Assembly: GCA_003153935.1 (NCBI GenBank)
Contig: PMCA01000011.1
Location: 67,912-131,911, forward strand
DNA: 64,000 nt
Direction: 5' to 3'
Source of the DNA: Elusimicrobiota bacterium
GTDB lineage: Bacteria; CAYTYR01; UBA6262
Below, in pieces: positions 2,906 through 57,581 of the stretch. The notes under the pieces are model-generated. The model was not told where the DNA came from. It made no database searches and saw only the letters and a list, made by a program, of their open reading frames with translations. Position 1 is the first letter of the stretch. Each line of letters starts with the position of its first letter. Both the position numbers and the translations under genes were made by a program.

Positions 2906-3445
2906 TTATTCCGCTGCCGCCTGGTTTTCTTTTTTGGCGCCAGTGGCTCCCGGACCTTCCTCCGCAGCCATCTTATTCAATTTTTCCAGGGTGCTCTTCT
3001 CCAGGTCAGTCAGGACCTTATCCAGGTCCAGCAATATGATGAGGCGCCGATCCATTTTACCCACGCCCTTGAGGTATTCGGCGTCAATATCGGTAATGGT
3101 CGGCGGTAAAGGGTCGATCGCATCATTGGCAAGGCGCAGGACTTCACTCACGCTGTCTACCACCAACCCGACGGTTTGGCTGGAAACCTCGGCCACTACC
3201 ACCCGGGTATTGGCGTCATCCTCCTTTTTGGTCAGACCGAAACGGTCCCGCAGGTCGATTATGGGGATAATCTTGCCGCGCAGATTGATCACGCCCTCTA
3301 CAAAAGTGGGCATGCCCGGTATACGGGTGATACCTACCGGGCGAATAATTTCCTGAACTTGCGCGATGCCGATGCCATATTCTTCGTTGGACAGGCCAAA
3401 GACCACTATTTGGGAGGTGCCTTCTTCTTTCTTCTCCTGGATCAT
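2906..3445 (-). CDS. cheW: Chemotaxis coupling protein CheW
   Basis: 179 aa CheW-like domain (VVFGLSNEEYGIGIAQVQEIIRPVGITRIPGMPTFVEGVINLRGKIIPIIDLRDRFGL). Confidence 0.85.
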   Translation of the reverse strand: MIQEKKEEGTSQIVVFGLSNEEYGIGIAQVQEIIRPVGITRIPGMPTFVEGVINLRGKIIPIIDLRDRFGLTKKEDDANTRVVVAEVSSQTVGLVVDSVSEVLRLANDAIDPLPPTITDIDAEYLKGVGKMDRRLIILLDLDKVLTDLEKSTLEKLNKMAAEEGPGATGAKKENQAAAE

Positions 3446-5680: not shown

Positions 5681-6244
5681 TTATCCTTCACTGCTAATGA
5701 TATACGTATATACCTGCAGGGTAACATCGATATAAGGCAGCTTTTCCGTATTGCGGGTGATCTTCAGGCTTTCCACCTTGATCAACCGTGGCAGTTTTTT
5801 CAAGTTAGCTAAATATTCGCCCAAATTACGGTAACGGCAGCGCATGGTGATCTCGATCGGCAGCCGGTTATAGGACAAACCTCCCTGCTGTTCCCCTGTT
5901 TCCAGGGGTTTAGTATTGATCGAAACATAAGTGATATTAGCCTGGTTGGCCACAGTGGCCAGGGCTTGCAGCAAGCTGGGGATCTGCTTGGAATCCGGCA
6001 GTTTATTCCTAAAGTACTGCCATTGCTGTTCCATCTTACCGGCTTCTTCGCGGATCTTATTCAGGTCCCGCAGAAATTCGTAGGCTCGTTGTATCTCATC
6101 GTTTATTTGTTGTATCTCCGCTTTTTGCTGCGCGATCTTATCACGGGCCGGCTGGATAAAGAAATACTGGCTGAAGCCGGCGATACCGGCGAAGATCAGG
6201 AAGTATTTCAATAAAGCCTTTTCTTTCGCGCCTATCTTTTTCAT
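5681..6244 (-). CDS. pilO: Type IV pilus assembly protein PilO
   Basis: 187 aa. N-terminal TM, coiled coil, C-terminal ferredoxin-like region. Sits between pilMN and pilP-like. Confidence 0.7.
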   Translation of the reverse strand: MKKIGAKEKALLKYFLIFAGIAGFSQYFFIQPARDKIAQQKAEIQQINDEIQRAYEFLRDLNKIREEAGKMEQQWQYFRNKLPDSKQIPSLLQALATVANQANITYVSINTKPLETGEQQGGLSYNRLPIEITMRCRYRNLGEYLANLKKLPRLIKVESLKITRNTEKLPYIDVTLQVYTYIISSEG

Positions 6245-30226: not shown

Positions 30227-30370
30227 ATATCCTCCTGCCGATCAACTACTCCCCTAATATAAATATACCACTAAATCTCGTCTATATCAATGTATCATTT
30301 ACGGGGTATTGTACTCCAAGTAGAGGCTAAAAAGCAAGGATAATTGATAAATAAAATGGACAAAAAAATA

Positions 30371-30458
30371 CGGAGAGACAGGGATTCGAACCCTGGGTGA
30401 GGTCACCCCCACATACGCTTTCCAGGCGTACGCCTTCAACCACTCGGCCATCTCTCCA
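30371..30458 (-). tRNA. tRNA-Ser (anticodon GGA)
   Basis: GGAGAGATGGCCGAGTGGTTGAAGGCG-TACGC-CTGGAAA-GCGTA + long variable arm + GGTTCGAATCC T-loop. 88 nt. No encoded CCA. Confidence 0.8.
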
Positions 30459-30482: not shown

Positions 30483-30572
30483 TGGCGGAGGCGGAAGGAT
30501 TTGAACCTTCGGTCCGGTTACCCGGACTCCGGTTTTCGAGACCGGTGCACTCAACCACTATGCGACGCCTCC
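30483..30572 (-). tRNA. tRNA-Ser (anticodon CGA), CCA encoded
   Basis: GGAGGCGTCGCATAGTGGTTGAGTGC-ACCGG-TCTCGAA-AACCGG... long variable arm, GGTTCAAATCC T-loop, terminal CCA. Confidence 0.8.
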
Positions 30573-30583
30573 AAAGTTATTAT

Positions 30584-30667
30584 CCAGTTTTCCCTCCCTT
30601 GAAGTCTTCGACTTCATACAGGGAGGACAGGCGAGACTGGCGCCTTCAACCACTCGGCCACCCTTCC
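30584..30667 (-). other. tRNA-Ser-like 5'-half fragment (acceptor + D-arm + anticodon stem) with a 40-nt hairpin at the anticodon-loop position. No T-arm or 3' acceptor strand.
   Basis: Minus strand: GGAAGGGTGGCCGAGTGGTTGAAGGCG-CCAGT-CTCG[CCTGTCCTCCCTGTATGAAGTCGAAGACTTCAAGGGAGGG]AAA-ACTGG. The 5' half is near-identical to tRNA-Ser(GGA). Confidence 0.4.
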
Positions 30668-30676
30668 AACTCTACT

Positions 30677-30736
30677 CCGGTTTTCCCCCCGTTGAAGTCT
30701 GTCGACTTCAATACACGGGGGACAGGCGAGACCGGT
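30677..30736 (-). other. tRNA-Ser(CGA)-like anticodon-arm fragment with the same hairpin at the anticodon-loop position
   Basis: Minus strand: ACCGGT-CTCG[CCTGTCCCCCGTGTATTGAAGTCGACAGACTTCAACGGGGGG]AAA-ACCGGAGT. The flanks match the anticodon arm of the real tRNA-Ser(CGA) (ACCGGTCTCGAAAACCGGAGT). Confidence 0.35.
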
Positions 30737-30738
30737 AA

Positions 30739-31194
30739 CTATTTTCGTTTTTCTTTAAAAAACTCTTTTATTAACTCTCTGCATTCTTTTTCTAAAATAC
30801 CAGCATGAACCTTAATGCGATGGTTTAATTTTTTATTACCGGTCACATTTAATACACTGCCGCAAGCCCCGGCTTTCGGGTCTTTGGCTCCAAAATGCAG
30901 TTCCCTGACCCTGGCGTTTACCAATGCTCCTGCGCACATGGCGCAGGGCTCGATGGTTACATAAAGGATGACCTCGGGGAGACGGTAATTGCCGATCTTT
31001 TTGGCCGCTCTACGCAAGGTAACTATTTCCGCATGGGCAGCGGGGTCCGTTGTCATGATCGGGCAGTTATGCCCACGGGCGATTATTTTCCCGTCGAGAA
31101 CTGCCACTGCCCCAATTGGGACCTCATTTTTTCGCTTCGCTTTGCGGGCTTCTTTAAGCGCTGCTTGCATGAAATATTCATTTGTTCTTATCAT
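30739..31194 (-). CDS. tadA: tRNA adenosine(34) deaminase TadA
   Basis: CMP/dCMP deaminase Zn motifs HAEI and PCAMCAGAL. Start taken at MIRTNEYF (31194), because the ORF track extension reads through the tRNA-Arg gene. Confidence 0.85.
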   Translation of the reverse strand: MIRTNEYFMQAALKEARKAKRKNEVPIGAVAVLDGKIIARGHNCPIMTTDPAAHAEIVTLRRAAKKIGNYRLPEVILYVTIEPCAMCAGALVNARVRELHFGAKDPKAGACGSVLNVTGNKKLNHRIKVHAGILEKECRELIKEFFKEKRK

Positions 31195-31207
31195 CGAATA
31201 AAAAAAG

Positions 31208-31281
31208 CGCGCCCTACAGGATTCGAACCTGTGGCCTACTGATTCGTAGTCAGTCGCTCTATCCAACTGAGCTAAGGGCGC
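31208..31281 (-). tRNA. tRNA-Arg (anticodon ACG)
   Basis: GCGCCCTTAGCTCAGTTGGATAGAGCG-ACTGA-CTACGAA-TCAGT-AGGCC-ACAGGTTCGAATCCTGT-AGGGCGC-G, 74 nt. Confidence 0.85.
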
Positions 31282-31345
31282 ATGGAAAGTCCCCTATGGG
31301 ACTAGTACATTATATATTGTTTCGTGGCAGGTTTCAAGGAGAATT

Positions 31346-52723: not shown

Positions 52724-55198
52724 ATGGCGGAAGCATTTAAGGAAAATATCGTACCCCGTAATATAGAAGAGGAGATGAAATCCTCCTACATAGATTATTC
52801 CATGAGCGTGATCGTCGGACGCGCCCTCCCGGACGTGCGGGACGGTTTAAAGCCGGTCCATCGGCGCATTTTATACGCCATGAAAGAATTGGGGCTGGTC
52901 CATAATAAGGCCTACCGCAAAAGCGCTACGGTCGTCGGTGACGTGCTCGGTAAATATCACCCGCACGGGGATATGGCGGTCTATGATTCGATCGTACGCA
53001 TGGCCCAGGATTTTTCGCTGCGCTATCCTTTAATAGATGGGCAAGGGAATTTTGGATCCATCGACGGTGATCCGGCGGCGGCTTACAGATATACGGAAGT
53101 TCGTATGGCCGCGCTGGCGGAAGAATTACTGAAGGATATTGATAAGAATACGGTGGATTTCGCGCCGACCTTTGACAACTATAGGGAAGAACCACTGGTA
53201 TTGCCGGCGGCTTTCCCCAATCTGCTGGTCAACGGCTCCAGCGGTATCGCAGTGGGCATGGCCACGAATATCCCGCCGCATAATTTAGGCGAAGTGATCG
53301 ATGCGATCATTTGCCTGATCGAAACTCCGGAAGCGGATATAAAAGAATTGATGAAGTATATTAAAGGGCCTGATTTCCCGACTGCGGCCACTATCCGCGG
53401 TAAAGGAGGTATCCGGGACGCTTATATGACCGGGCGCGGCTCGGTTATGTTGCAGGCTGTGGTGGAGACCGAGGACATAGGTAACGGTAAAGAAGCTATT
53501 ATTGTTAAGGAGCTGCCGTACCAGGTAAACAAAGCCACTTTGCTCGAAACTATCGCCGACCTGGTCAAGGACAAGAAGATCGAGGGCATTTCCGATCTGC
53601 GCGATGAATCTGACCGCGAAGGCATCAGGGTAGTTATTGAGCTGAAACGCGATGCCAACACCGAACTTATCCTGAACCAGCTCTTCAAGCATACCCAGTT
53701 ACAAACTTCATTCGGCATCATCATGCTGGCCCTGGTCAATAACCGGCCGCGTGTACTTAACCTTAAAGAGATGCTGGTTTATTACCTGCGCCACCGGCAG
53801 GAAGTAACGATACGGCGCACCAAGTTCGATTTGGCAAAAGCCGAGGCACGGGCGCATATTTTGGAAGGCTTGAAGATCGCCGTTGACAATATTAATAAAG
53901 TAGTCAAGATCATAAAAGAATCTAAGGACGTGGATGAGGCGCGGGAAGGGCTGATGACTACTTTTGGCTTATCCAAGATACAGGCCCAGGCTATTCTGGA
54001 CATGCGCCTGCAACAGCTGACCGGACTGGAACTGGAAAAACTGGAACGTGAATACCTGGAATTATTAAAAACCATCGAACGGCTGAAAGCTATTCTGGCC
54101 GATCCTAAAAAAGTGCTGGCGTTGATAAAGGAAGAATTGCTGCAGATCAAGGAAAAATATGACGACAAGCGCCGGACCAAGATCATCGCCCAGGAAGCGG
54201 AAGATCTTTCCATGGAGGACTTGATCGAAGAGGAATCCGTGGCTGTGACCATCTCGCACGCCGGCTACGTTAAGCGTATACCGGCCTCCACTTACCACGC
54301 CCAGAATCGCGGCGGTAAAGGCGTAACCGGGGTCACTACGCGCGAGGATGATTTCATCGAGGACGTGTTTGTCACCTCCACGCACGATTATATGCTGCTC
54401 TTCAGCAATATCGGGAGGGTTTATTGGATAAAGGTATATGAGATCCCGGAGGGCGGACGCGTGGCCAAAGGCAAGGCCATAGTCAATTTGGTCAAGCTAT
54501 CCAAGCCCGATGAAATGGTGACCGCGGCTATTACCATTCATGATTTCAACAAGGAGAACGTTTTCCTGATGATGATAACCAAGCAAGGGACGGTAAAAAA
54601 GACACCCTTGAGCGAATACAGCAATCCACGGGCCGGAGGCATTATCGCCATTAATCTGGAAGACAGCGATGAACTGATGGGCGTTAAAATGACTGACGGC
54701 TCTCAGGAGATAATTATCGGCACGCGCGACGGGCTGGCCATCCATTTCAAAGAAGAAGAAGTCAGGCCGATCGGCCGGGTGGGTAAGGGAGTGCGGGGTA
54801 TAGAACTGCGCAAAGAAGACCAGGTCGTCGGCATGGAAGTGGTGAAAAAAGAAGAGATCATCCTGGTAGCAACGGAAAATGGCTACGGCAAAAAAACCAA
54901 GGTTAAGGAATACCGGATACAAAGCCGCGGCGGCAAGGGCGTGATCAATATTAAAGCTAACGAGCGTAACGGCAGGGTTATCAGCATTAAGAGGGTTTCC
55001 GATAACGACGATATCATGGTCATCACCCAAAAGGGTGTCGTGAACCGTCAGCCGGTAAAGGCTATCTCCACGATGGGTCGTAATACTCAAGGGGTAAGGC
55101 TCATTAAATTGCAGGAGGGGGACAGGCTGGTATCCGTAGCCAGAATGATACACGAGTCGGAAGTGCCTAAGGACGAACAGGATGATAAAAAAGTTTGA
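52724..55198 (+). CDS. gyrA: DNA gyrase subunit A
   Basis: 824 aa. Active-site Tyr region (AAMRYTE), QRDR HPHGD, GyrA-box, C-terminal beta-pinwheel repeats. Confidence 0.95.
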
Positions 55199-55625
55199 GC
55201 CGATCGACCAATACAGCGATTCCGAGCTGGGCCTGATAGTTAACGGTGATGACCTGCAGCAGCTGTATTACCATGCGACCATCGGGATGCTGAAGATGAT
55301 CTCCGATACCAACAAGGTCAGAGAGTTGACCAAGGTTAAGATCCAGGCCCAGGGCTCCAGCAAAGAAGAAACCCTGGTTAATTTCCTGAACGCGGTCCTG
55401 AACCAGGTCAATAATAATGATATGCAATTCGCCGCGGTTATGATAACCTACGCCGATTTGAACAGCATCGAAGCGGAGTTAAAGGGCGAAGAATATAACC
55501 GTAATAAACACGATAAAAAAGGAACTATTAAAAGAGTGATCTTTCGCGATGTAACCATTAAAAAAACCGCCCAGGAAGTCAACGGACCGCTGGTATGGCA
55601 CACCGAATTACATTTCGCAGTATAA
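55182..55625 (+). CDS. Archease-like protein
   Basis: 147 aa. Aligns with the archease pattern KxF/YExxDxxxDxxLxxxGDxLxxLFxxAxxGM...VxVxaqG...LLxxFLxxxL. Overlaps the gyrA stop by 17 nt. Confidence 0.55.
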
Positions 55626-55638
55626 AGAGGGCAAGACC

Positions 55639-56913
55639 ATGTTAGATATTAAGAAGATCAGAGAAAACGCTGCACAGATGGAAGAAAGATTGACCAAGCG
55701 CGACCCCAGGATCAACCTGAAACAATTACAGACCAAAGATACGAAGCGTAAAGCGCTCCTGCTGCAGGTGGAGGAATTAAAAGCTAGGCGTAATAAGGCC
55801 AGCGATGAGATCGCGGTCCTGAAAAAAGATAAAAAAGACGCTTCCGCCCTGATCCAGGATATGCAGACAGTATCCGCCCAGATAAAAGCCCTGGACCCTG
55901 AATTAAAAACGCTGGAAGAGGAAATCGATGCAGAACTATTAAACATCCCTAATACCCCGGATGATACTGTGCCCGTCGGGAAAGACGAAAAGGATAATAA
56001 GATTATCCGGGAATGGGGGAAAAAACGGATTTTTGATTTCACCCCCCGGGATCATACGGATGTCGGCGAAATCTTGGGGATATTGGATTTTAAAACCGCG
56101 GCCAAGATCAGCGGCGCCAGGTTTGCTTTGCTTAAGGGGCCAGGGGCGATGCTGGAAAGGGCGATCATTTCATTCTTTTTAGAAACCCATATTCAAAAAC
56201 ACGGCTACCAGGAAGTCTGGGTCCCGTTCCTGGTTAATCCGCAAAGCATGCAAGGGACTGGACAATTACCTAAATTTGAGGCAGAGTTATTTAAGTGCCG
56301 TGACGATGAATACTACCTGATCCCCACTGCGGAGGTCCCAGTGACCAATATCCACCGCGATGAGATCATGGCTGAGGCGGACTTGCCCCGGAAATATGTT
56401 TGTTATACAGCTTGCTTCCGGAGAGAATCCGGCTCATACGGTAAGGATACCAGGGGGCTGATACGCAATCACCAGTTCAATAAAGTGGAGTTGGTAAAAT
56501 TCGTAAAACCGGAAGAATCGTTTAAGGAATTAGAGGTACTGACCGGAGACGCCGAAGAGGTTCTGCAATTGCTGGGGTTGCCCTACCGGGTGGTGGCCTT
56601 ATGCACAGGGGACCTGGGTTTTTCCAGCGCCAAAACATACGACCTGGAAGTCTGGATGCCGGGCGAGAACCGGTACCGGGAAATATCTTCCTGCAGCAAC
56701 TTTACCGATTACCAGGCGCGCCGGATGAACATAAAATATCGCGGCCAGGATAAGGGTATTAACTTTGTCCACACCTTGAATGGTTCTGGCGTCGCGGTGG
56801 GCCGGACGTTTGCGGCTATATTGGAGAATTACCAGCAAAAAGACGGTAGCCTGGATATCCCGGCGGCTCTGCAAAAATATATGAACGGCCTGATGGCGAT
56901 CAGCAAATTATAA
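55639..56913 (+). CDS. serS: Serine--tRNA ligase
   Basis: 424 aa. N-terminal coiled-coil arm, class II motifs 1-3 (FRRE, GSG..VGRT). Confidence 0.9.
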
Positions 56914-56923
56914 GAGGTGACCT

Positions 56924-57229
56924 ATGCCAATAGCCAAGATCAAAGACTGGGAACTGAACACCAAGGCCAACGCGGAGTTTGTTAAAAAATCTATTGATAC
57001 GCAACACTTGAAAATAGGCACCACTAACGGTATTGTACAGGTAGCCGGGGAAATAGTATTTACCGGCGCGAAGATTGACGCCAGTATAGACGCGGAAGTT
57101 ATCAATGTGCTAAAATCGGTGGACCGTATGATCAAGACGATCAACGGGGTAAAGGATGTTAAATACTCGTTAACTAACTGGCAGAAAACCGGCGGCAACT
57201 GGGGCCGTCGCGCCAAAGAAGTAGGCTGA
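56924..57229 (+). CDS. Small BON-like domain protein, function unknown
   Basis: 101 aa. Pattern NGIVQVAGEIVF...DVKY resembles BON/OsmY-type domains. Weak call. Confidence 0.35.
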   Translation: MPIAKIKDWELNTKANAEFVKKSIDTQHLKIGTTNGIVQVAGEIVFTGAKIDASIDAEVINVLKSVDRMIKTINGVKDVKYSLTNWQKTGGNWGRRAKEVG

Positions 57230-57234
57230 TAATT

Positions 57235-57313
57235 GGAGGCGTCGCATAGCGGTTGAACCGGTCTTGCCTGTCCCCCTGTCCTGAAACCGTAGGTTTCAAG
57301 GGGGGAAAACCGG
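57235..57313 (+). other. tRNA-Ser-like 5'-half fragment with ~40-nt hairpin at the anticodon-loop position, immediately upstream of tRNA-Ser(TGA)
   Basis: GGAGGCGTCGCATAGCGGTTGA-ACCGG-TCTTG[CCTGTCCCCCTGTCCTGAAACCGTAGGTTTCAAGGGGGG]AAA-ACCGG. The 5' half is near-identical to tRNA-Ser(CGA) at 30483-30572. The anticodon nucleotides (TGA) match the adjacent real tRNA. Confidence 0.4.
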
Positions 57314-57321
57314 AAAGCAAT

Positions 57322-57408
57322 GGAGGGGTGACCGAGTGGTTTAAGGTGCTGGTCTTGAAAACCAGTGTGGGCTAACGCTCACCGGGGGTTCAAATCCCTC
57401 CCCCTCCG
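57322..57408 (+). tRNA. tRNA-Ser (anticodon TGA)
   Basis: GGAGGGGTGACCGAGTGGTTTAAGGTG-CTGGT-CTTGAAA-ACCAG + long variable arm + GGTTCAAATCC. 87 nt. Confidence 0.8.
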
Positions 57409-57453
57409 ATTAAAACAAAAACATAATAGTAATGATTTTTTAACCGATAATTT

Positions 57454-57544
57454 GGAGAGGTGGCCGAGTGGTTGAAGGCAGCCGCCTGCTAAGCGGTTGT
57501 ACGGGTGAAAACCTGTACCCTGGGTTCGAATCCCAGCCTCTCCG
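57454..57544 (+). tRNA. tRNA-Ser (anticodon GCT)
   Basis: GGAGAGGTGGCCGAGTGGTTGAAGGCAG-CCGC-CTGCTAA-GCGG + long variable arm + GGTTCGAATCC. 91 nt. Confidence 0.8.
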
Positions 57545-57581
57545 TTTTAATTTTTAATCCACCCGAACATAGGGAGCCGGA

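Follow-up and report, generated by a model that had tools for sequence, protein, structure and literature searches.

In actinobacteriophages, the integration mode described as tRNA-dependent lysogeny employs a short core within the anticodon loop and destroys the host tRNA, while a complete tRNA of the same isotype, carried by the element, arrives and becomes indispensable (Guerrero-Bustamante & Hatfull 2024, PMC10865867). In such lysogens, the tRNA fragments are separated by an entire prophage, which encodes a tyrosine integrase and carries the phage tRNA at another place (PMC10865867). A partial tRNA copy beside an intact tRNA is likewise the mark of past site-specific recombination in genomic islands, for which the anticodon loop is a common crossover site, and the classical displaced fragment is the 3′ part, found at the far end of a kilobase-scale island (Islander, PMC4383910). 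Anticodon loops also accommodate introns. The group I introns at position 35/36 of Patescibacteria tRNA-Asn and tRNA-Asp reside in complete, spliced genes, are several-fold larger than the insert described below, and possess a conserved core as well as a U preceding the splice site (PMC13011429), while archaeal introns and split tRNAs need a bulge-helix-bulge (BHB) (PMC4090602).

The DNA analysed here (the window) is a stretch of 64,000 nucleotides from an Elusimicrobiota bacterium (GenBank GCA_003153935.1, contig PMCA01000011.1), in which three units (w1, w2 and w3) were read directly from the sequence. All share one plan, namely a tRNA-Ser anticodon stem closed by the loop CTYG[39–42 nt two-tier hairpin]AAA. 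Their scores against the unit model range between 72 and 87 bits (E about 1e-19 to 1e-24), which exceeds chance expectation. The units and their surroundings are as follows:

30370..30458, minus strand: tRNA-Ser(GGA), live, last gene of the operon (ARAGORN, Rfam)
30483..30572, minus strand: tRNA-Ser(CGA), live, 'GGAGGCG' body type, with encoded CCA (ARAGORN; Rfam tRNA, 61.3 bits)
30584..30667, minus strand: unit w2, tRNA-Ser 5′ half ('GGAAGGG' body type) and arm with hairpin b (unit model, 87.4 bits)
30677..30735, minus strand: unit w1, stub consisting of the anticodon arm only, with hairpin a (sequence; unit model, 80.1 bits)
30739..31194, minus strand: tadA, tRNA adenosine-34 deaminase (open reading frame; homologues named TadA with PF00383/PF14437)
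31207..31281, minus strand: tRNA-Arg(ACG), first gene of the operon (ARAGORN, Rfam)
31309..31337, minus strand: predicted sigma-70-like promoter, TTGAAA-17-TATAAT, 11/12 positions (consensus match only)
55639..57229, plus strand: serS (55639–56913) and a conserved 101-aa reading frame, ORF101 (56924–57229), upstream of w3
57235..57313, plus strand: unit w3, tRNA-Ser 5′ half ('GGAGGCG' type) and hairpin arm (unit model, 73.7 bits)
57321..57409, plus strand: tRNA-Ser(TGA), live, 'GGAGGGG' body type (ARAGORN, Rfam)
57453..57545, plus strand: tRNA-Ser(GCT), live (ARAGORN, Rfam)

Units w1 and w2 occupy the 3′ untranslated region of tadA. The former begins 3 nt past the stop codon (TAG, 30741–30739, minus strand), lacks the 5′ half, and reads CCGGT (30735–30731), CTCG (30730–30727), the 42-nt hairpin a (30726–30685), AAA (30684–30682) and ACCGG (30681–30677); it folds as predicted (z = −3.4). 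In w2, the acceptor 5′ strand and D arm start at 30667 and lead into CCAGT (30640–30636), CTCG (30635–30632), the 40-nt hairpin b (30631–30592), AAA (30591–30589) and ACTGG (30588–30584), with an 11-nt spacer before the live tRNA-Ser(CGA). The 5′ half of w3, which begins at 57235, 5 nt past the ORF101 stop, carries a 4-nt deletion and is followed by CCGGT (57258–57262), CTTG (57263–57266), a 39-nt hairpin (57267–57305), AAA (57306–57308) and ACCGG (57309–57313), with tRNA-Ser(TGA) 8 nt downstream. Each window unit precedes either a complete tRNA-Ser whose anticodon matches, at a distance of 8–11 nt, or another unit. Alignment reveals nothing past the anticodon stem, and the variable arm, T arm and 3′ acceptor strand are absent from every window unit. 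Since w3 is identical in six independent assemblies (ENA, NCBI, JGI, Logan), it is not an assembly artefact.

Direct reading bears out the initial annotation, which had described tRNA-Ser-like fragments with a hairpin in the anticodon loop 5′ of tRNA-Ser(CGA), devoid of a T arm and 3′ acceptor strand. Both a 5′-half copy and an arm-only copy exist, but their order has to be specified, as it is the 5′-half copy (w2) that adjoins the tRNA, and the arm-only copy (w1) lies farther upstream, after tadA. The claim that the loop letters flanking the hairpin reproduce the adjacent live anticodon holds for both anticodons (CTCG..AAA beside CGA, CTTG..AAA beside TGA).

As in tRNA-dependent lysogeny, the anticodon loop of a tRNA gene is disrupted, and an intact tRNA of the same isotype stands beside it. 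The units differ, however, in having no element body, integrase or 3′ fragment, in carrying a hairpin between both strands of the anticodon stem, and in the distance of the presumed replacement tRNA, which is only 7–50 nt away. Similarly, the 5′ halves form partial tRNA copies in direct repeat with the live gene, a feature of integrative-element scars, but the 7–50 nt between a stub and the next gene contain no integrase or element body. In contrast to the fragments left by tRNA/tmRNA genomic islands, the units represent 5′ parts and are arrayed immediately ahead of the live gene, and there is no island.

Integron attC sites are about 60 nt long and consist of an outer and an inner stem with unpaired spacers, extrahelical bases and one folding strand; their structure is conserved while their sequence varies, and they carry RYYYAAC/GTTRRRY boxes and are associated with the IntI integrase. 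By analogy, the units may be called attC-like with regard to their size (~60 nt), two stems with unpaired spacers, conserved extrahelical bases and an apparent folding strand. The attC boxes are nevertheless absent from the units, in which the outer stem is CCGGT/ACCGG or CCAGT/ACTGG, and neither an integron integrase nor cassette reading frames were found among the window open reading frames checked. REP/BIME and MITE-type repeats are dispersed in tens to hundreds of copies per genome. The unit resembles them in being short and imperfectly palindromic and in its single-stranded 5′ tail, which is conserved, whereas its hairpin occurs only in tRNA-Ser anticodon loops, in 1–4 copies per assembly.

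The six real tRNAs were called by both ARAGORN and Rfam (RF00005). On the units, ARAGORN called no gene, intron-containing tRNA or tmRNA, and Rfam returned no family at the gathering score or at E up to 10. The units are pseudogene stubs, not functional tRNA genes. The weak tRNA-derived noise in the Rfam search at E up to 10 fell on real tRNAs only. The suggestion that the units are precursors of intron-containing or split tRNAs, with the hairpin excised and the two halves ligated by RtcB or another RNA ligase together with archease, is largely refuted and must be considered highly improbable. The insert is located in the anticodon loop at or beside 35/36, a position also used by the Patescibacteria group I introns (PMC13011429), and an archease gene lies directly upstream of serS; among the reading frames checked in the 64 kb of genome covered, neither RtcB nor EndA appeared. 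Archease is, however, also present in relatives that lack units. None of the nine units recognized in total (see below) has a 3′ exon or extends past about nt 44 of the tRNA, an orphan tRNA-Ser(CGA/TGA) 3′ half was not found in the window or 12 related loci, and a complete tRNA with the same anticodon is always next door. No BHB can be drawn, as the two stems are connected by one strand of 9 nt (CTYGCCTGT) and one of 4 nt (GAAA), which allow no 4-bp helix. Group I introns contain a conserved catalytic core (P3–P8) and measure roughly 200 nt or more. The insert is 39–42 nt long and lacks a group I or group II core, the base that precedes it is G35 and not the U needed by group I introns, and no Rfam intron or ribozyme matched the units at E up to 10. 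Finally, the 5′ halves are degenerate, with deletions and foreign insertions.

Several other structural motifs were considered and rejected. Judged by eye, CUGU...GAAA is not a hammerhead core, and the internal loop UGUA/A has no tandem G·A pairs as would be expected of a k-turn. A terminator was rejected for either strand because the sense strand has an A run behind the hairpin, and in the antisense strand the T run comes ahead of it. A CRISPR-like mini-array or guide RNA is not consistent with repeats that differ by compensatory changes and 'spacers' that lie in the tRNA sense; no cas or transposase genes are present in the 64 kb.

The compensatory difference in the inner stem reported in the initial annotation (GAAGTC/GACTTC versus GAAACC/GGTTTC) proved to be real and was joined by others, CCCCCG/CGGGGG versus CCTCCC/GGGAGG and, in the outer stem, CCGGT/ACCGG versus CCAGT/ACTGG. 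All three helices covary, with 97 % of cells paired and 5 of 18 pairs changed on both sides (10 cells), in a set of only eight related sequences, some of which were possibly copied from one shared source. The covariation score was reached by none of 500 shuffles, and slid controls fall to 30–59 % paired. The U·G wobble cells in the two hairpin helices (5/5) are valid only on the tRNA-sense, transcribed strand. These comparisons show that the base-pair structure of the hairpin-extended arm has been kept by compensatory change, and the hairpin appears to be under selection.

Exact-pattern scans covered 185,579 species genomes, a metagenome set and IMG/VR, and gave six further true copies. All of these lie in tRNA-Ser anticodon loops of three related Elusimicrobiota-like assemblies, where they occupy the two loci known from the window, downstream of tadA or of serS. 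With the hairpin pattern, 4 of 26 matches among the species genomes were true, only at the two tRNA-Ser loci of two MAGs, as was 1 of 8 in the metagenome set. IMG/VR was scanned three times, first with the hairpin pattern, then with the tRNA 5′ half of the GGAGGCG type, and finally with a loose pattern of the junction whose matches were re-screened by the unit model; none yielded a true match, and a phage or plasmid source was accordingly rejected. A unit covariance model run on the sense strand of 160 kb of the window and related loci found nothing beyond the units. In total, nine units (eight distinct) are present in four assemblies, with zero, one or two copies per locus, and about 11 related loci have none. 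The insert occupies the same loop position in all nine, across two tRNA-Ser body types and two loci, and the spacer between a unit and the next gene is 7–50 nt long at all loci. The hairpin, which matches no known family, is specifically tied to tRNA-Ser anticodon loops and is not a generic dispersed repeat; no copies were found outside these loops in the 160-kb model search or the genome scans. The window open reading frames checked encode housekeeping functions, with no Pfam match for ORF101.

Comparison with relatives (designated by L numbers) reveals an alternation of body types. Unit w2 is of the GGAAGGG type and now stands 5′ of a live GGAGGCG-type tRNA, while w3 is of the GGAGGCG type, which is that of the live tRNA-Ser(TGA) in L007, L012, L014 and L048, and now precedes a live tRNA of the GGAGGGG type. 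The body types of stub and live tRNA differ, with the same anticodon, in w2, w3, L036 B and L041. Unit A of L036 begins 1 nt past the tadA stop, which is where the intact GGAAGGG-type tRNA-Ser(CGA) starts in the unit-free L054 and L056/L057. L014 has one unit, and L010 has that unit and the same 50-nt spacer together with a second unit at the point where the live tRNA of L014 begins, so that the newest stub adjoins the live gene. In both L010 and L014, stub and live gene share 36 identical nt in direct repeat. A decayed tRNA 3′ half was rejected as the origin of the 50-nt spacer, since its local alignment was no better than that of shuffles (547/2000).

The 5′ halves look neutral, being deleted in w1, shortened by 4 nt in w3 and interrupted by foreign D-loop hairpin insertions in L010 u1 and L036 A and B. 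The hairpins, for their part, look more recently shared than the genomes. Hairpin b differs between w2 and L036 B by one indel only, while serS is 72 % identical (47 % at third codon positions), and the hairpin and 50-nt spacer of L014 and L010 show 2 differences, with flanking core DNA 80–82 % identical. The GGAGGCG-type tRNA at the tadA locus of L055 has an upstream flank, ATAGAAATCGT, that matches the serS–ORF101 locus of L014, and tRNA-Ser genes are evidently copied between loci. In these genomes, insertions of 130–190 nt at tRNA 3′ ends are flanked by 16-nt duplicates of the tRNA end, and therefore small insertions directed at tRNA genes do exist here. The large serine recombinase element 3′ of tRNA-Ser(TGA) in L007, L010 and L014 was rejected as the agent, as it joins at the tRNA 3′ end, L007/L008 have the element without units, and the window has units without the element. 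Simple unequal crossing-over was rejected for the second unit of L010 because its spacer differs from that of the first. Where stub and live tRNA are of one type, the loop could simply have received [hairpin + spacer + 5′ half] as an insertion, but this account fails with mixed body types because the live tRNAs have matching acceptor strands; such a tRNA is self-consistent end to end, and a whole gene must therefore have been replaced.

The explanation tentatively preferred here, though far from assured, is that the units are left halves remaining from resident tRNA-Ser genes that fresh copies supplanted in a recurrent event at anticodon position 35/36; it is based on the alternation of stub and live body types and on the newest stub adjoining the live gene. 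Each unit would correspond to nt 1 to about 44 of a tRNA-Ser, the defunct left portion of a gene that formerly worked at that spot, and the same DNA event would have struck tRNA-Ser(NGA) genes of this lineage repeatedly. A hairpin-forming insert of roughly 40 nt would land between positions 35 and 36 (or, just as possibly, between 34 and 35, since its last base is G), the sequence 3′ of the anticodon stem would be lost, and a complete tRNA-Ser with the same anticodon, presumably of foreign origin, would come to lie 7–50 nt downstream. Each new event would turn the current gene into the next stub, leading to an accumulation of stubs on the 5′ side. The hairpin may be the signature of a DNA-level agent acting in trans, being either the sense-strand recombination site, in folded form, of a tiny non-autonomous insertion or the paired ends of such an insertion, and its copies would differ by compensatory changes because the agent needs the fold. 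The logic would be that of tRNA-dependent lysogeny, in which the host tRNA is broken at the anticodon loop and a replacement supplied, and the stubs would be passively transcribed in the tRNA-Arg–tadA–tRNA-Ser and serS–ORF101–tRNA-Ser operons. The earlier proposal of relics of a tRNA-targeting mobile element comes close to this reading, with displaced resident tRNA-Ser remains whose number varies between relatives. Against displacement, recombinase, transposase, reverse transcriptase and element body are missing at all nine units, and the displaced 3′ half was not found in any locus examined. Displacement also leaves unexplained why the stub should retain the anticodon stem's 3′ strand but nothing beyond it, and hairpins a and b, which follow tadA in the same order in the window and L036 on swapped tRNA types, have no clean derivation from serial replacement. 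It is also possible, though somewhat doubtful, that the hairpin is the core of an undescribed tiny element homing to tRNA-Ser(NGA) anticodon loops, either mini mobile DNA or a new RNA family; in the first case, replacement of the resident tRNA gene may be imposed by the hairpin as a folded recombination site, and in the second, the hairpin-extended anticodon arm may be selected for a role at mRNA–tRNA junctions.

A role of an exapted structured RNA in the tRNA-Arg–tadA–tRNA-Ser transcript is nearly as likely as displacement, while still a minority possibility; it is the main rival and corresponds to the new family of tRNA-associated structured RNA suggested in the initial annotation. The hairpin-extended arm, whatever its origin, would now be kept by selection in the polycistronic transcript, in which RNase P cleavage at the 5′ end of the live tRNA-Ser would leave a tadA or serS–ORF101 mRNA ending in one or two stable stem-loops that would block 3′ exonucleases or bind a factor via the invariant unpaired GCCUGU and UGU. 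The covariation of all three helices and the strand-specific wobble pairs point in this direction, as does the preservation of hairpin and outer stem in units with a deleted or disrupted 5′ half (w1, L010 u1, L036 A and B). Furthermore, w3 and the unit of L041 hold the same position in genomes 74 % identical, amid intergenic DNA that cannot be aligned, and both keep the 5′ half (22/22 positions), the stem and a compensatorily diverged hairpin, a retention that looks like selection in place and is not predicted by a passive scar. The predicted promoter at 31309..31337 is the sole strong candidate upstream of tRNA-Arg, tadA, the units and both tRNA-Ser genes, with no promoter or terminator predicted within the units or between tadA and the tRNAs. 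Within the 263-nt precursor, independent folding is predicted for the hairpins and the tRNA cloverleaf. (For the TGA locus, the minimum-energy fold of the tRNA itself was not a cloverleaf, and this prediction was set aside.) In the unit-free L054 and L056/L057, the tRNA starts 1 nt past the tadA stop, and RNase P cleavage would therefore leave the mRNA without 3′ structure. However, the units are missing from most close relatives at both loci, and are therefore not essential; they are newly added in L010, and near-identical hairpins in distant genomes require transfer, not constraint alone. Any hairpin could shield a 3′ end, which leaves the exact anticodon-loop position unexplained, and the outer stem of the youngest units has two C·A mismatches. 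Less probable is one old accident, in which a single ancient hairpin insertion into a redundant tandem tRNA-Ser spread passively, reaching both loci and passing from strain to strain through ordinary tandem duplication, gene conversion and, following gene transfer, homologous recombination, with no dedicated agent and no function. The copying of tRNA-Ser between loci (the L055 flank), the identical hairpins of the two L010 units and the L014/L010 block, which exceeds core-genome similarity and adjoins a 90–92 % identical mobile element, are consistent with such spread. On the other hand, the hairpin helices have a single unpaired cell but at least five independent double changes of the compensatory kind, which is not neutral drift, the same hairpin variant is found in two tRNA backbones (w2 and L036 B), and the 3′-side homology arm of only about 8 nt is too short for ordinary conversion. 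That all nine units end within 3 nt of one tRNA position is likewise not predicted by random decay.

From the practical point of view, tRNA finders silently skip such stubs, and a naive repeat finder could take the pair for a mini CRISPR array. If the hairpin-extended arm is a functional RNA, it would represent a new tRNA-derived structured RNA at mRNA–tRNA junctions. If the replacement of resident genes is the correct reading, these loci would record how an essential tRNA gene was turned over serially, driven by an agent of such small size that nothing but its hairpin remains, and 'tRNA-dependent' integration would extend from actinobacterial phages to miniature elements in an uncultured phylum.

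Three truncated copies of a tRNA-Ser gene (units, or stubs), each with the anticodon loop split by a hairpin of about 40 nt, lie in the window: w1 and w2 after tadA, and w3 after serS and the conserved ORF101.

Gene order at the two window loci
31337-31309, minus: predicted sigma-70-like promoter, 11/12 consensus match
31281-31207, minus: tRNA-Arg(ACG)
31194-30739, minus: tadA
30735-30677, minus: unit w1
30667-30584, minus: unit w2
30572-30483, minus: tRNA-Ser(CGA)
30458-30370, minus: tRNA-Ser(GGA)
upstream of serS, plus: gyrB, gyrA, then archease
55182-55625, plus: archease (PF01951, E = 5e-18), between gyrA and serS
55639-56913, plus: serS
56924-57229, plus: ORF101, conserved, 101 aa
57235-57313, plus: unit w3
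57321-57409, plus: tRNA-Ser(TGA)
57453-57545, plus: tRNA-Ser(GCT)

The tadA gene stands directly 3' of tRNA-Arg(ACG), the gene of the TadA substrate (30739-31281, minus strand). The usual partner of archease is the RNA ligase RtcB, which was not seen among the window ORFs checked.

All units share a tRNA-Ser anticodon stem (CCGGT/ACCGG or CCAGT/ACTGG), and the anticodon loop of every unit consists of C-T-Y-G, an insert of 39-42 nt and A-A-A. The insert begins with CCTGT, a stem of 5-6 bp and TGTA(T), continues with a 7-bp inner stem (TGAAGYC/GRCTTCA) around a 3-4-nt loop, and ends with a single bulged A, the closing strand and a last letter G or A. The 5' acceptor strand and D arm are also present in w2 and w3, while w1 is the arm alone, starting 3 nt past the tadA stop codon; variable arm, T arm and 3' acceptor strand are lacking from every unit in the alignment. 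The computed fold of each unit matches the drawn structure, and in the predicted fold of the 263-nt tadA-to-tRNA precursor the two hairpins and the tRNA cloverleaf form side by side. In the minimum-energy fold of the precursor of w3 and tRNA-Ser(TGA), the 5' acceptor strand of the stub (57235-57241) pairs with the 3' acceptor strand of the live tRNA (57403-57409), which may be a folding artefact or may be relevant to maturation. The initial annotation was correct in every detail that could be checked, including the compensatory differences between hairpins and the match between the loop letters flanking the hairpin and the anticodon of the neighbouring tRNA.

ARAGORN and Rfam called the six true tRNAs and nothing on the units, Rfam even at E-values up to 10. 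Six independent assemblies, drawn from four archives, agree on the sequence of w3. The eight distinct units score 72-87 bits with a covariance model trained on these same units, which gave no further sense-strand match in 160 kb (the window and related loci) and no match in viral contigs totalling 664 kb. Databases were scanned with the exact hairpin pattern, no tRNA context being demanded. One genome from each of 185,579 species gave 26 matches (4 true), metagenome contigs gave 8 (1 true) and IMG/VR gave 1 (0 true). All true matches, from two MAGs or one metagenome contig, are in tRNA-Ser anticodon loops, the others being chance occurrences in coding sequence. This is not the distribution of a generic dispersed repeat unrelated to tRNA loci, which the initial annotation had named as a refuting outcome.

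The window's MAG is GCA_003154495.1. Loci of relatives, those with a label being Elusimicrobia or 'bacterium', were reached via SerS and TadA homologues (SerS 74-80 % identical). Overall, data from a handful of MAGs gave nine units (eight distinct), every one at the tadA or the serS–ORF101 locus.

Units at the two loci in the window and in related loci (L numbers)
serS–ORF101, 0 units: L007/L008/L009, L012, L048
serS–ORF101, 0 units and without any tRNA-Ser(TGA): L049-L052
serS–ORF101, 1 unit: L014 (UBA6262), L041, window
serS–ORF101, 2 units: L010 (CAYTYR010000001)
tadA, 0 units: L054, L055/L058/L059, L056/L057, L060/L061
tadA, 2 units: L036 (on the contig of L010), window

In L049-L052, one related lineage, tRNA-Ser(GCT) directly follows ORF101. 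The position of archease is conserved in relatives with or without units (L007, L010, L012, L048, L049). The gyrB product of L010 (1-1032) has 1261 aa and an intein splicing domain (PF14890), compared with 828 aa in the window and other relatives. In L007 (5715-8365), L008, L010 (5960-9275) and L014 (minus strand, below 899), the 3' end of tRNA-Ser(TGA) adjoins an element with genes for a large serine recombinase, an HTH protein and a type I restriction-modification methylase. Its identity is 90-92 % between genomes with core DNA approximately 82 % identical, and it is missing in L009, which has the same SerS as L008.

Comparison of these loci indicates that the stubs are former resident tRNA-Ser genes. 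The tRNA-Ser genes show two recurring body types, 'GGAAGGG…CCAGT' and 'GGAGGCG…CCGGT'. In relatives without units, the GGAAGGG type is the tRNA-Ser(CGA) that starts 1 nt past the tadA stop (L054, L056), and the GGAGGCG type is the tRNA-Ser(TGA) after ORF101 (L007, L012, L048). In L036, the stub of unit A belongs to the GGAAGGG type and starts exactly 1 nt past the tadA stop, that of unit B belongs to the GGAGGCG type, and the live gene returns to GGAAGGG. In the window, w2 is a GGAAGGG stub (CTCG..AAA) beside a live tRNA-Ser(CGA) of the GGAGGCG type, and w3 is a GGAGGCG stub (CTTG..AAA) beside a live tRNA-Ser(TGA) of a third type, GGAGGGG, an arrangement repeated in L041. L014 and L010 have one unit and its 50-nt spacer in common, and the second unit of L010 occupies the start position of the live tRNA of L014, ahead of a new spacer and then a live tRNA. 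Thus, the resident gene turns into the following stub, and further units accrue on the side nearest the gene. In the manner of pseudogene sequence, the 5' half of w1 is missing, that of w3 carries a 4-nt deletion, and the D loops of L010 u1 and L036 A and B contain foreign small hairpins. Small GC-rich hairpins that fit (T/C)CCGCC-N4-8-GGCGG(A/G) occur repeatedly in the intergenic DNA of L012, L036 and L056 and have been inserted in the D-loop region of three stubs (L010 5630-5653; L036 ~1247-1293 and 1378-1395). The presence of an encoded 3' CCA varies among orthologous tRNA-Ser genes of close relatives in both body types (window 30483-30486, L014, L010, L012 and L054-L056 versus L007, L009, L048 and L036), which fits frequent replacement of these genes. 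A nearly identical flank of 9-11 nt, ATAGAAATC(G/A)T, lies upstream of GGAGGCG-type tRNA-Ser at both loci (L055 1165-1184, tadA; L014 minus strand ~1130-1112, serS–ORF101; L010 5849-5870), and this type appears to have been copied between loci along with a short leader.

In a model-based alignment of the eight units, standard pairs occupy 97 % of 143 cells, and 5 of 18 pairs (10 cells), across all three helices, have changed on both sides. The covariation score was reached by none of 500 column shuffles, pairing fell to 58 % when the partner was slid by one column, and a MAFFT alignment left the covariation result unchanged. The two hairpin helices contain one unpaired cell and five U·G cells, each valid on the tRNA-sense strand only, and the unpaired letters GCCTGT, TGT, the bulged A and AAA are invariant. 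Five or more compensatory events to a single mismatch do not fit neutral decay; the conserved, covarying structure proposed in the initial annotation is supported, although with only eight related sequences the constraint is suggestive rather than conclusive. Two age signals pull in opposite ways. Hairpin b, the w2 variant, is one indel apart between w2 and L036 B, while serS is 72 % identical (third positions 47 %), and L014 and L010 differ at 2 positions in hairpin and 50-nt spacer, while flanking core DNA is 80-82 % identical; hairpins closer than their genomes point to a common source, recently active or transferred. On the other hand, w3 and L041 hold the equivalent position in genomes 74 % identical, with unalignable spacers and downstream intergenic DNA; their 5' halves are identical (22/22) and the stem is retained, while about 9 of the 40 hairpin positions differ, including an A-T to G-C compensation, which points to in-place constraint or ongoing gene conversion. 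The order of hairpins a (the w1 variant) and b after tadA is equal in the window and L036, with the tRNA types swapped.

It is tentatively proposed, at somewhat less than even probability, that the units arose by a DNA-level event. A recurrent event specific for anticodon position 35/36 would leave hairpin and stub and would retain or bring in a complete tRNA-Ser immediately 3' of them; a miniature agent moved in trans would contribute the hairpin, either as its folded site or as its paired ends. Tiny tRNA-targeted insertions do exist in these genomes, since insertions of 130-190 nt at tRNA 3' ends are flanked by 16-nt tRNA-end duplicates, the signature of miniature insertions that integrate at the T loop or the 3' end. 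They directly follow tRNA-Ser(GCT) or tRNA-Ser(GGA), the last 16 nt of which are repeated (AATCCCAGCCTCTCCG or AATCCCTGTCTCTCCG), at L012 ~6005-6195, L048 ~5886-6015, L056/L057 ~3258-3443 and probably the L041 3' end. The replacement logic follows that documented for tRNA-dependent lysogeny (PMC10865867). Against such an agent, no enzyme or element body was found at any of the nine units, and no displaced 3' half in any of the loci; serious weaknesses are that the model gives no reason for the stub ending just past the anticodon stem and that in mixed-type cases the whole gene, not merely a half, was replaced. A single old accident passively spread via duplication, conversion and transfer would account for copying between loci, such as the flank common to L055 and L014, but leaves the covariation and uniform truncation point unaccounted for and is considered unlikely. 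The intron-containing or split tRNA-Ser suggested in the initial annotation is highly improbable: there is no 3' exon, bulge-helix-bulge or intron core, the base preceding the insert is G, and archease also accompanies serS in unit-free relatives. These objections stand although group I introns are known at position 35/36 in Patescibacteria (PMC13011429).

Pieces of tRNA genes lying next to intact ones are a familiar type of scar. Rfam and full-text literature searches gave no description of the features found here in combination: an insert of 40 nt, structured and covarying, at one fixed position of the anticodon loop, the stacking of 5' stubs without an element body, and the alternation of tRNA body types.

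The main rival, a real though lesser possibility, is that selection now maintains the hairpin-extended anticodon arm as an RNA element. All units sit within operons, and the stretch from tadA to the tRNAs contains no predicted promoter or terminator, the strong predicted promoter being upstream of tRNA-Arg. In unit-free relatives with tRNA-Ser 1 nt past the tadA stop (L054 3000-3025, L056 2960-2970), the mRNA and the tRNAs have to be released from a common transcript by cleavage. Without units, the RNase P cut would end the tadA mRNA 1 nt past its stop; with them, the mRNA would terminate in stable stem-loops. The DNA-origin and RNA-element readings are compatible, one concerning the origin of the units and the other their maintenance.
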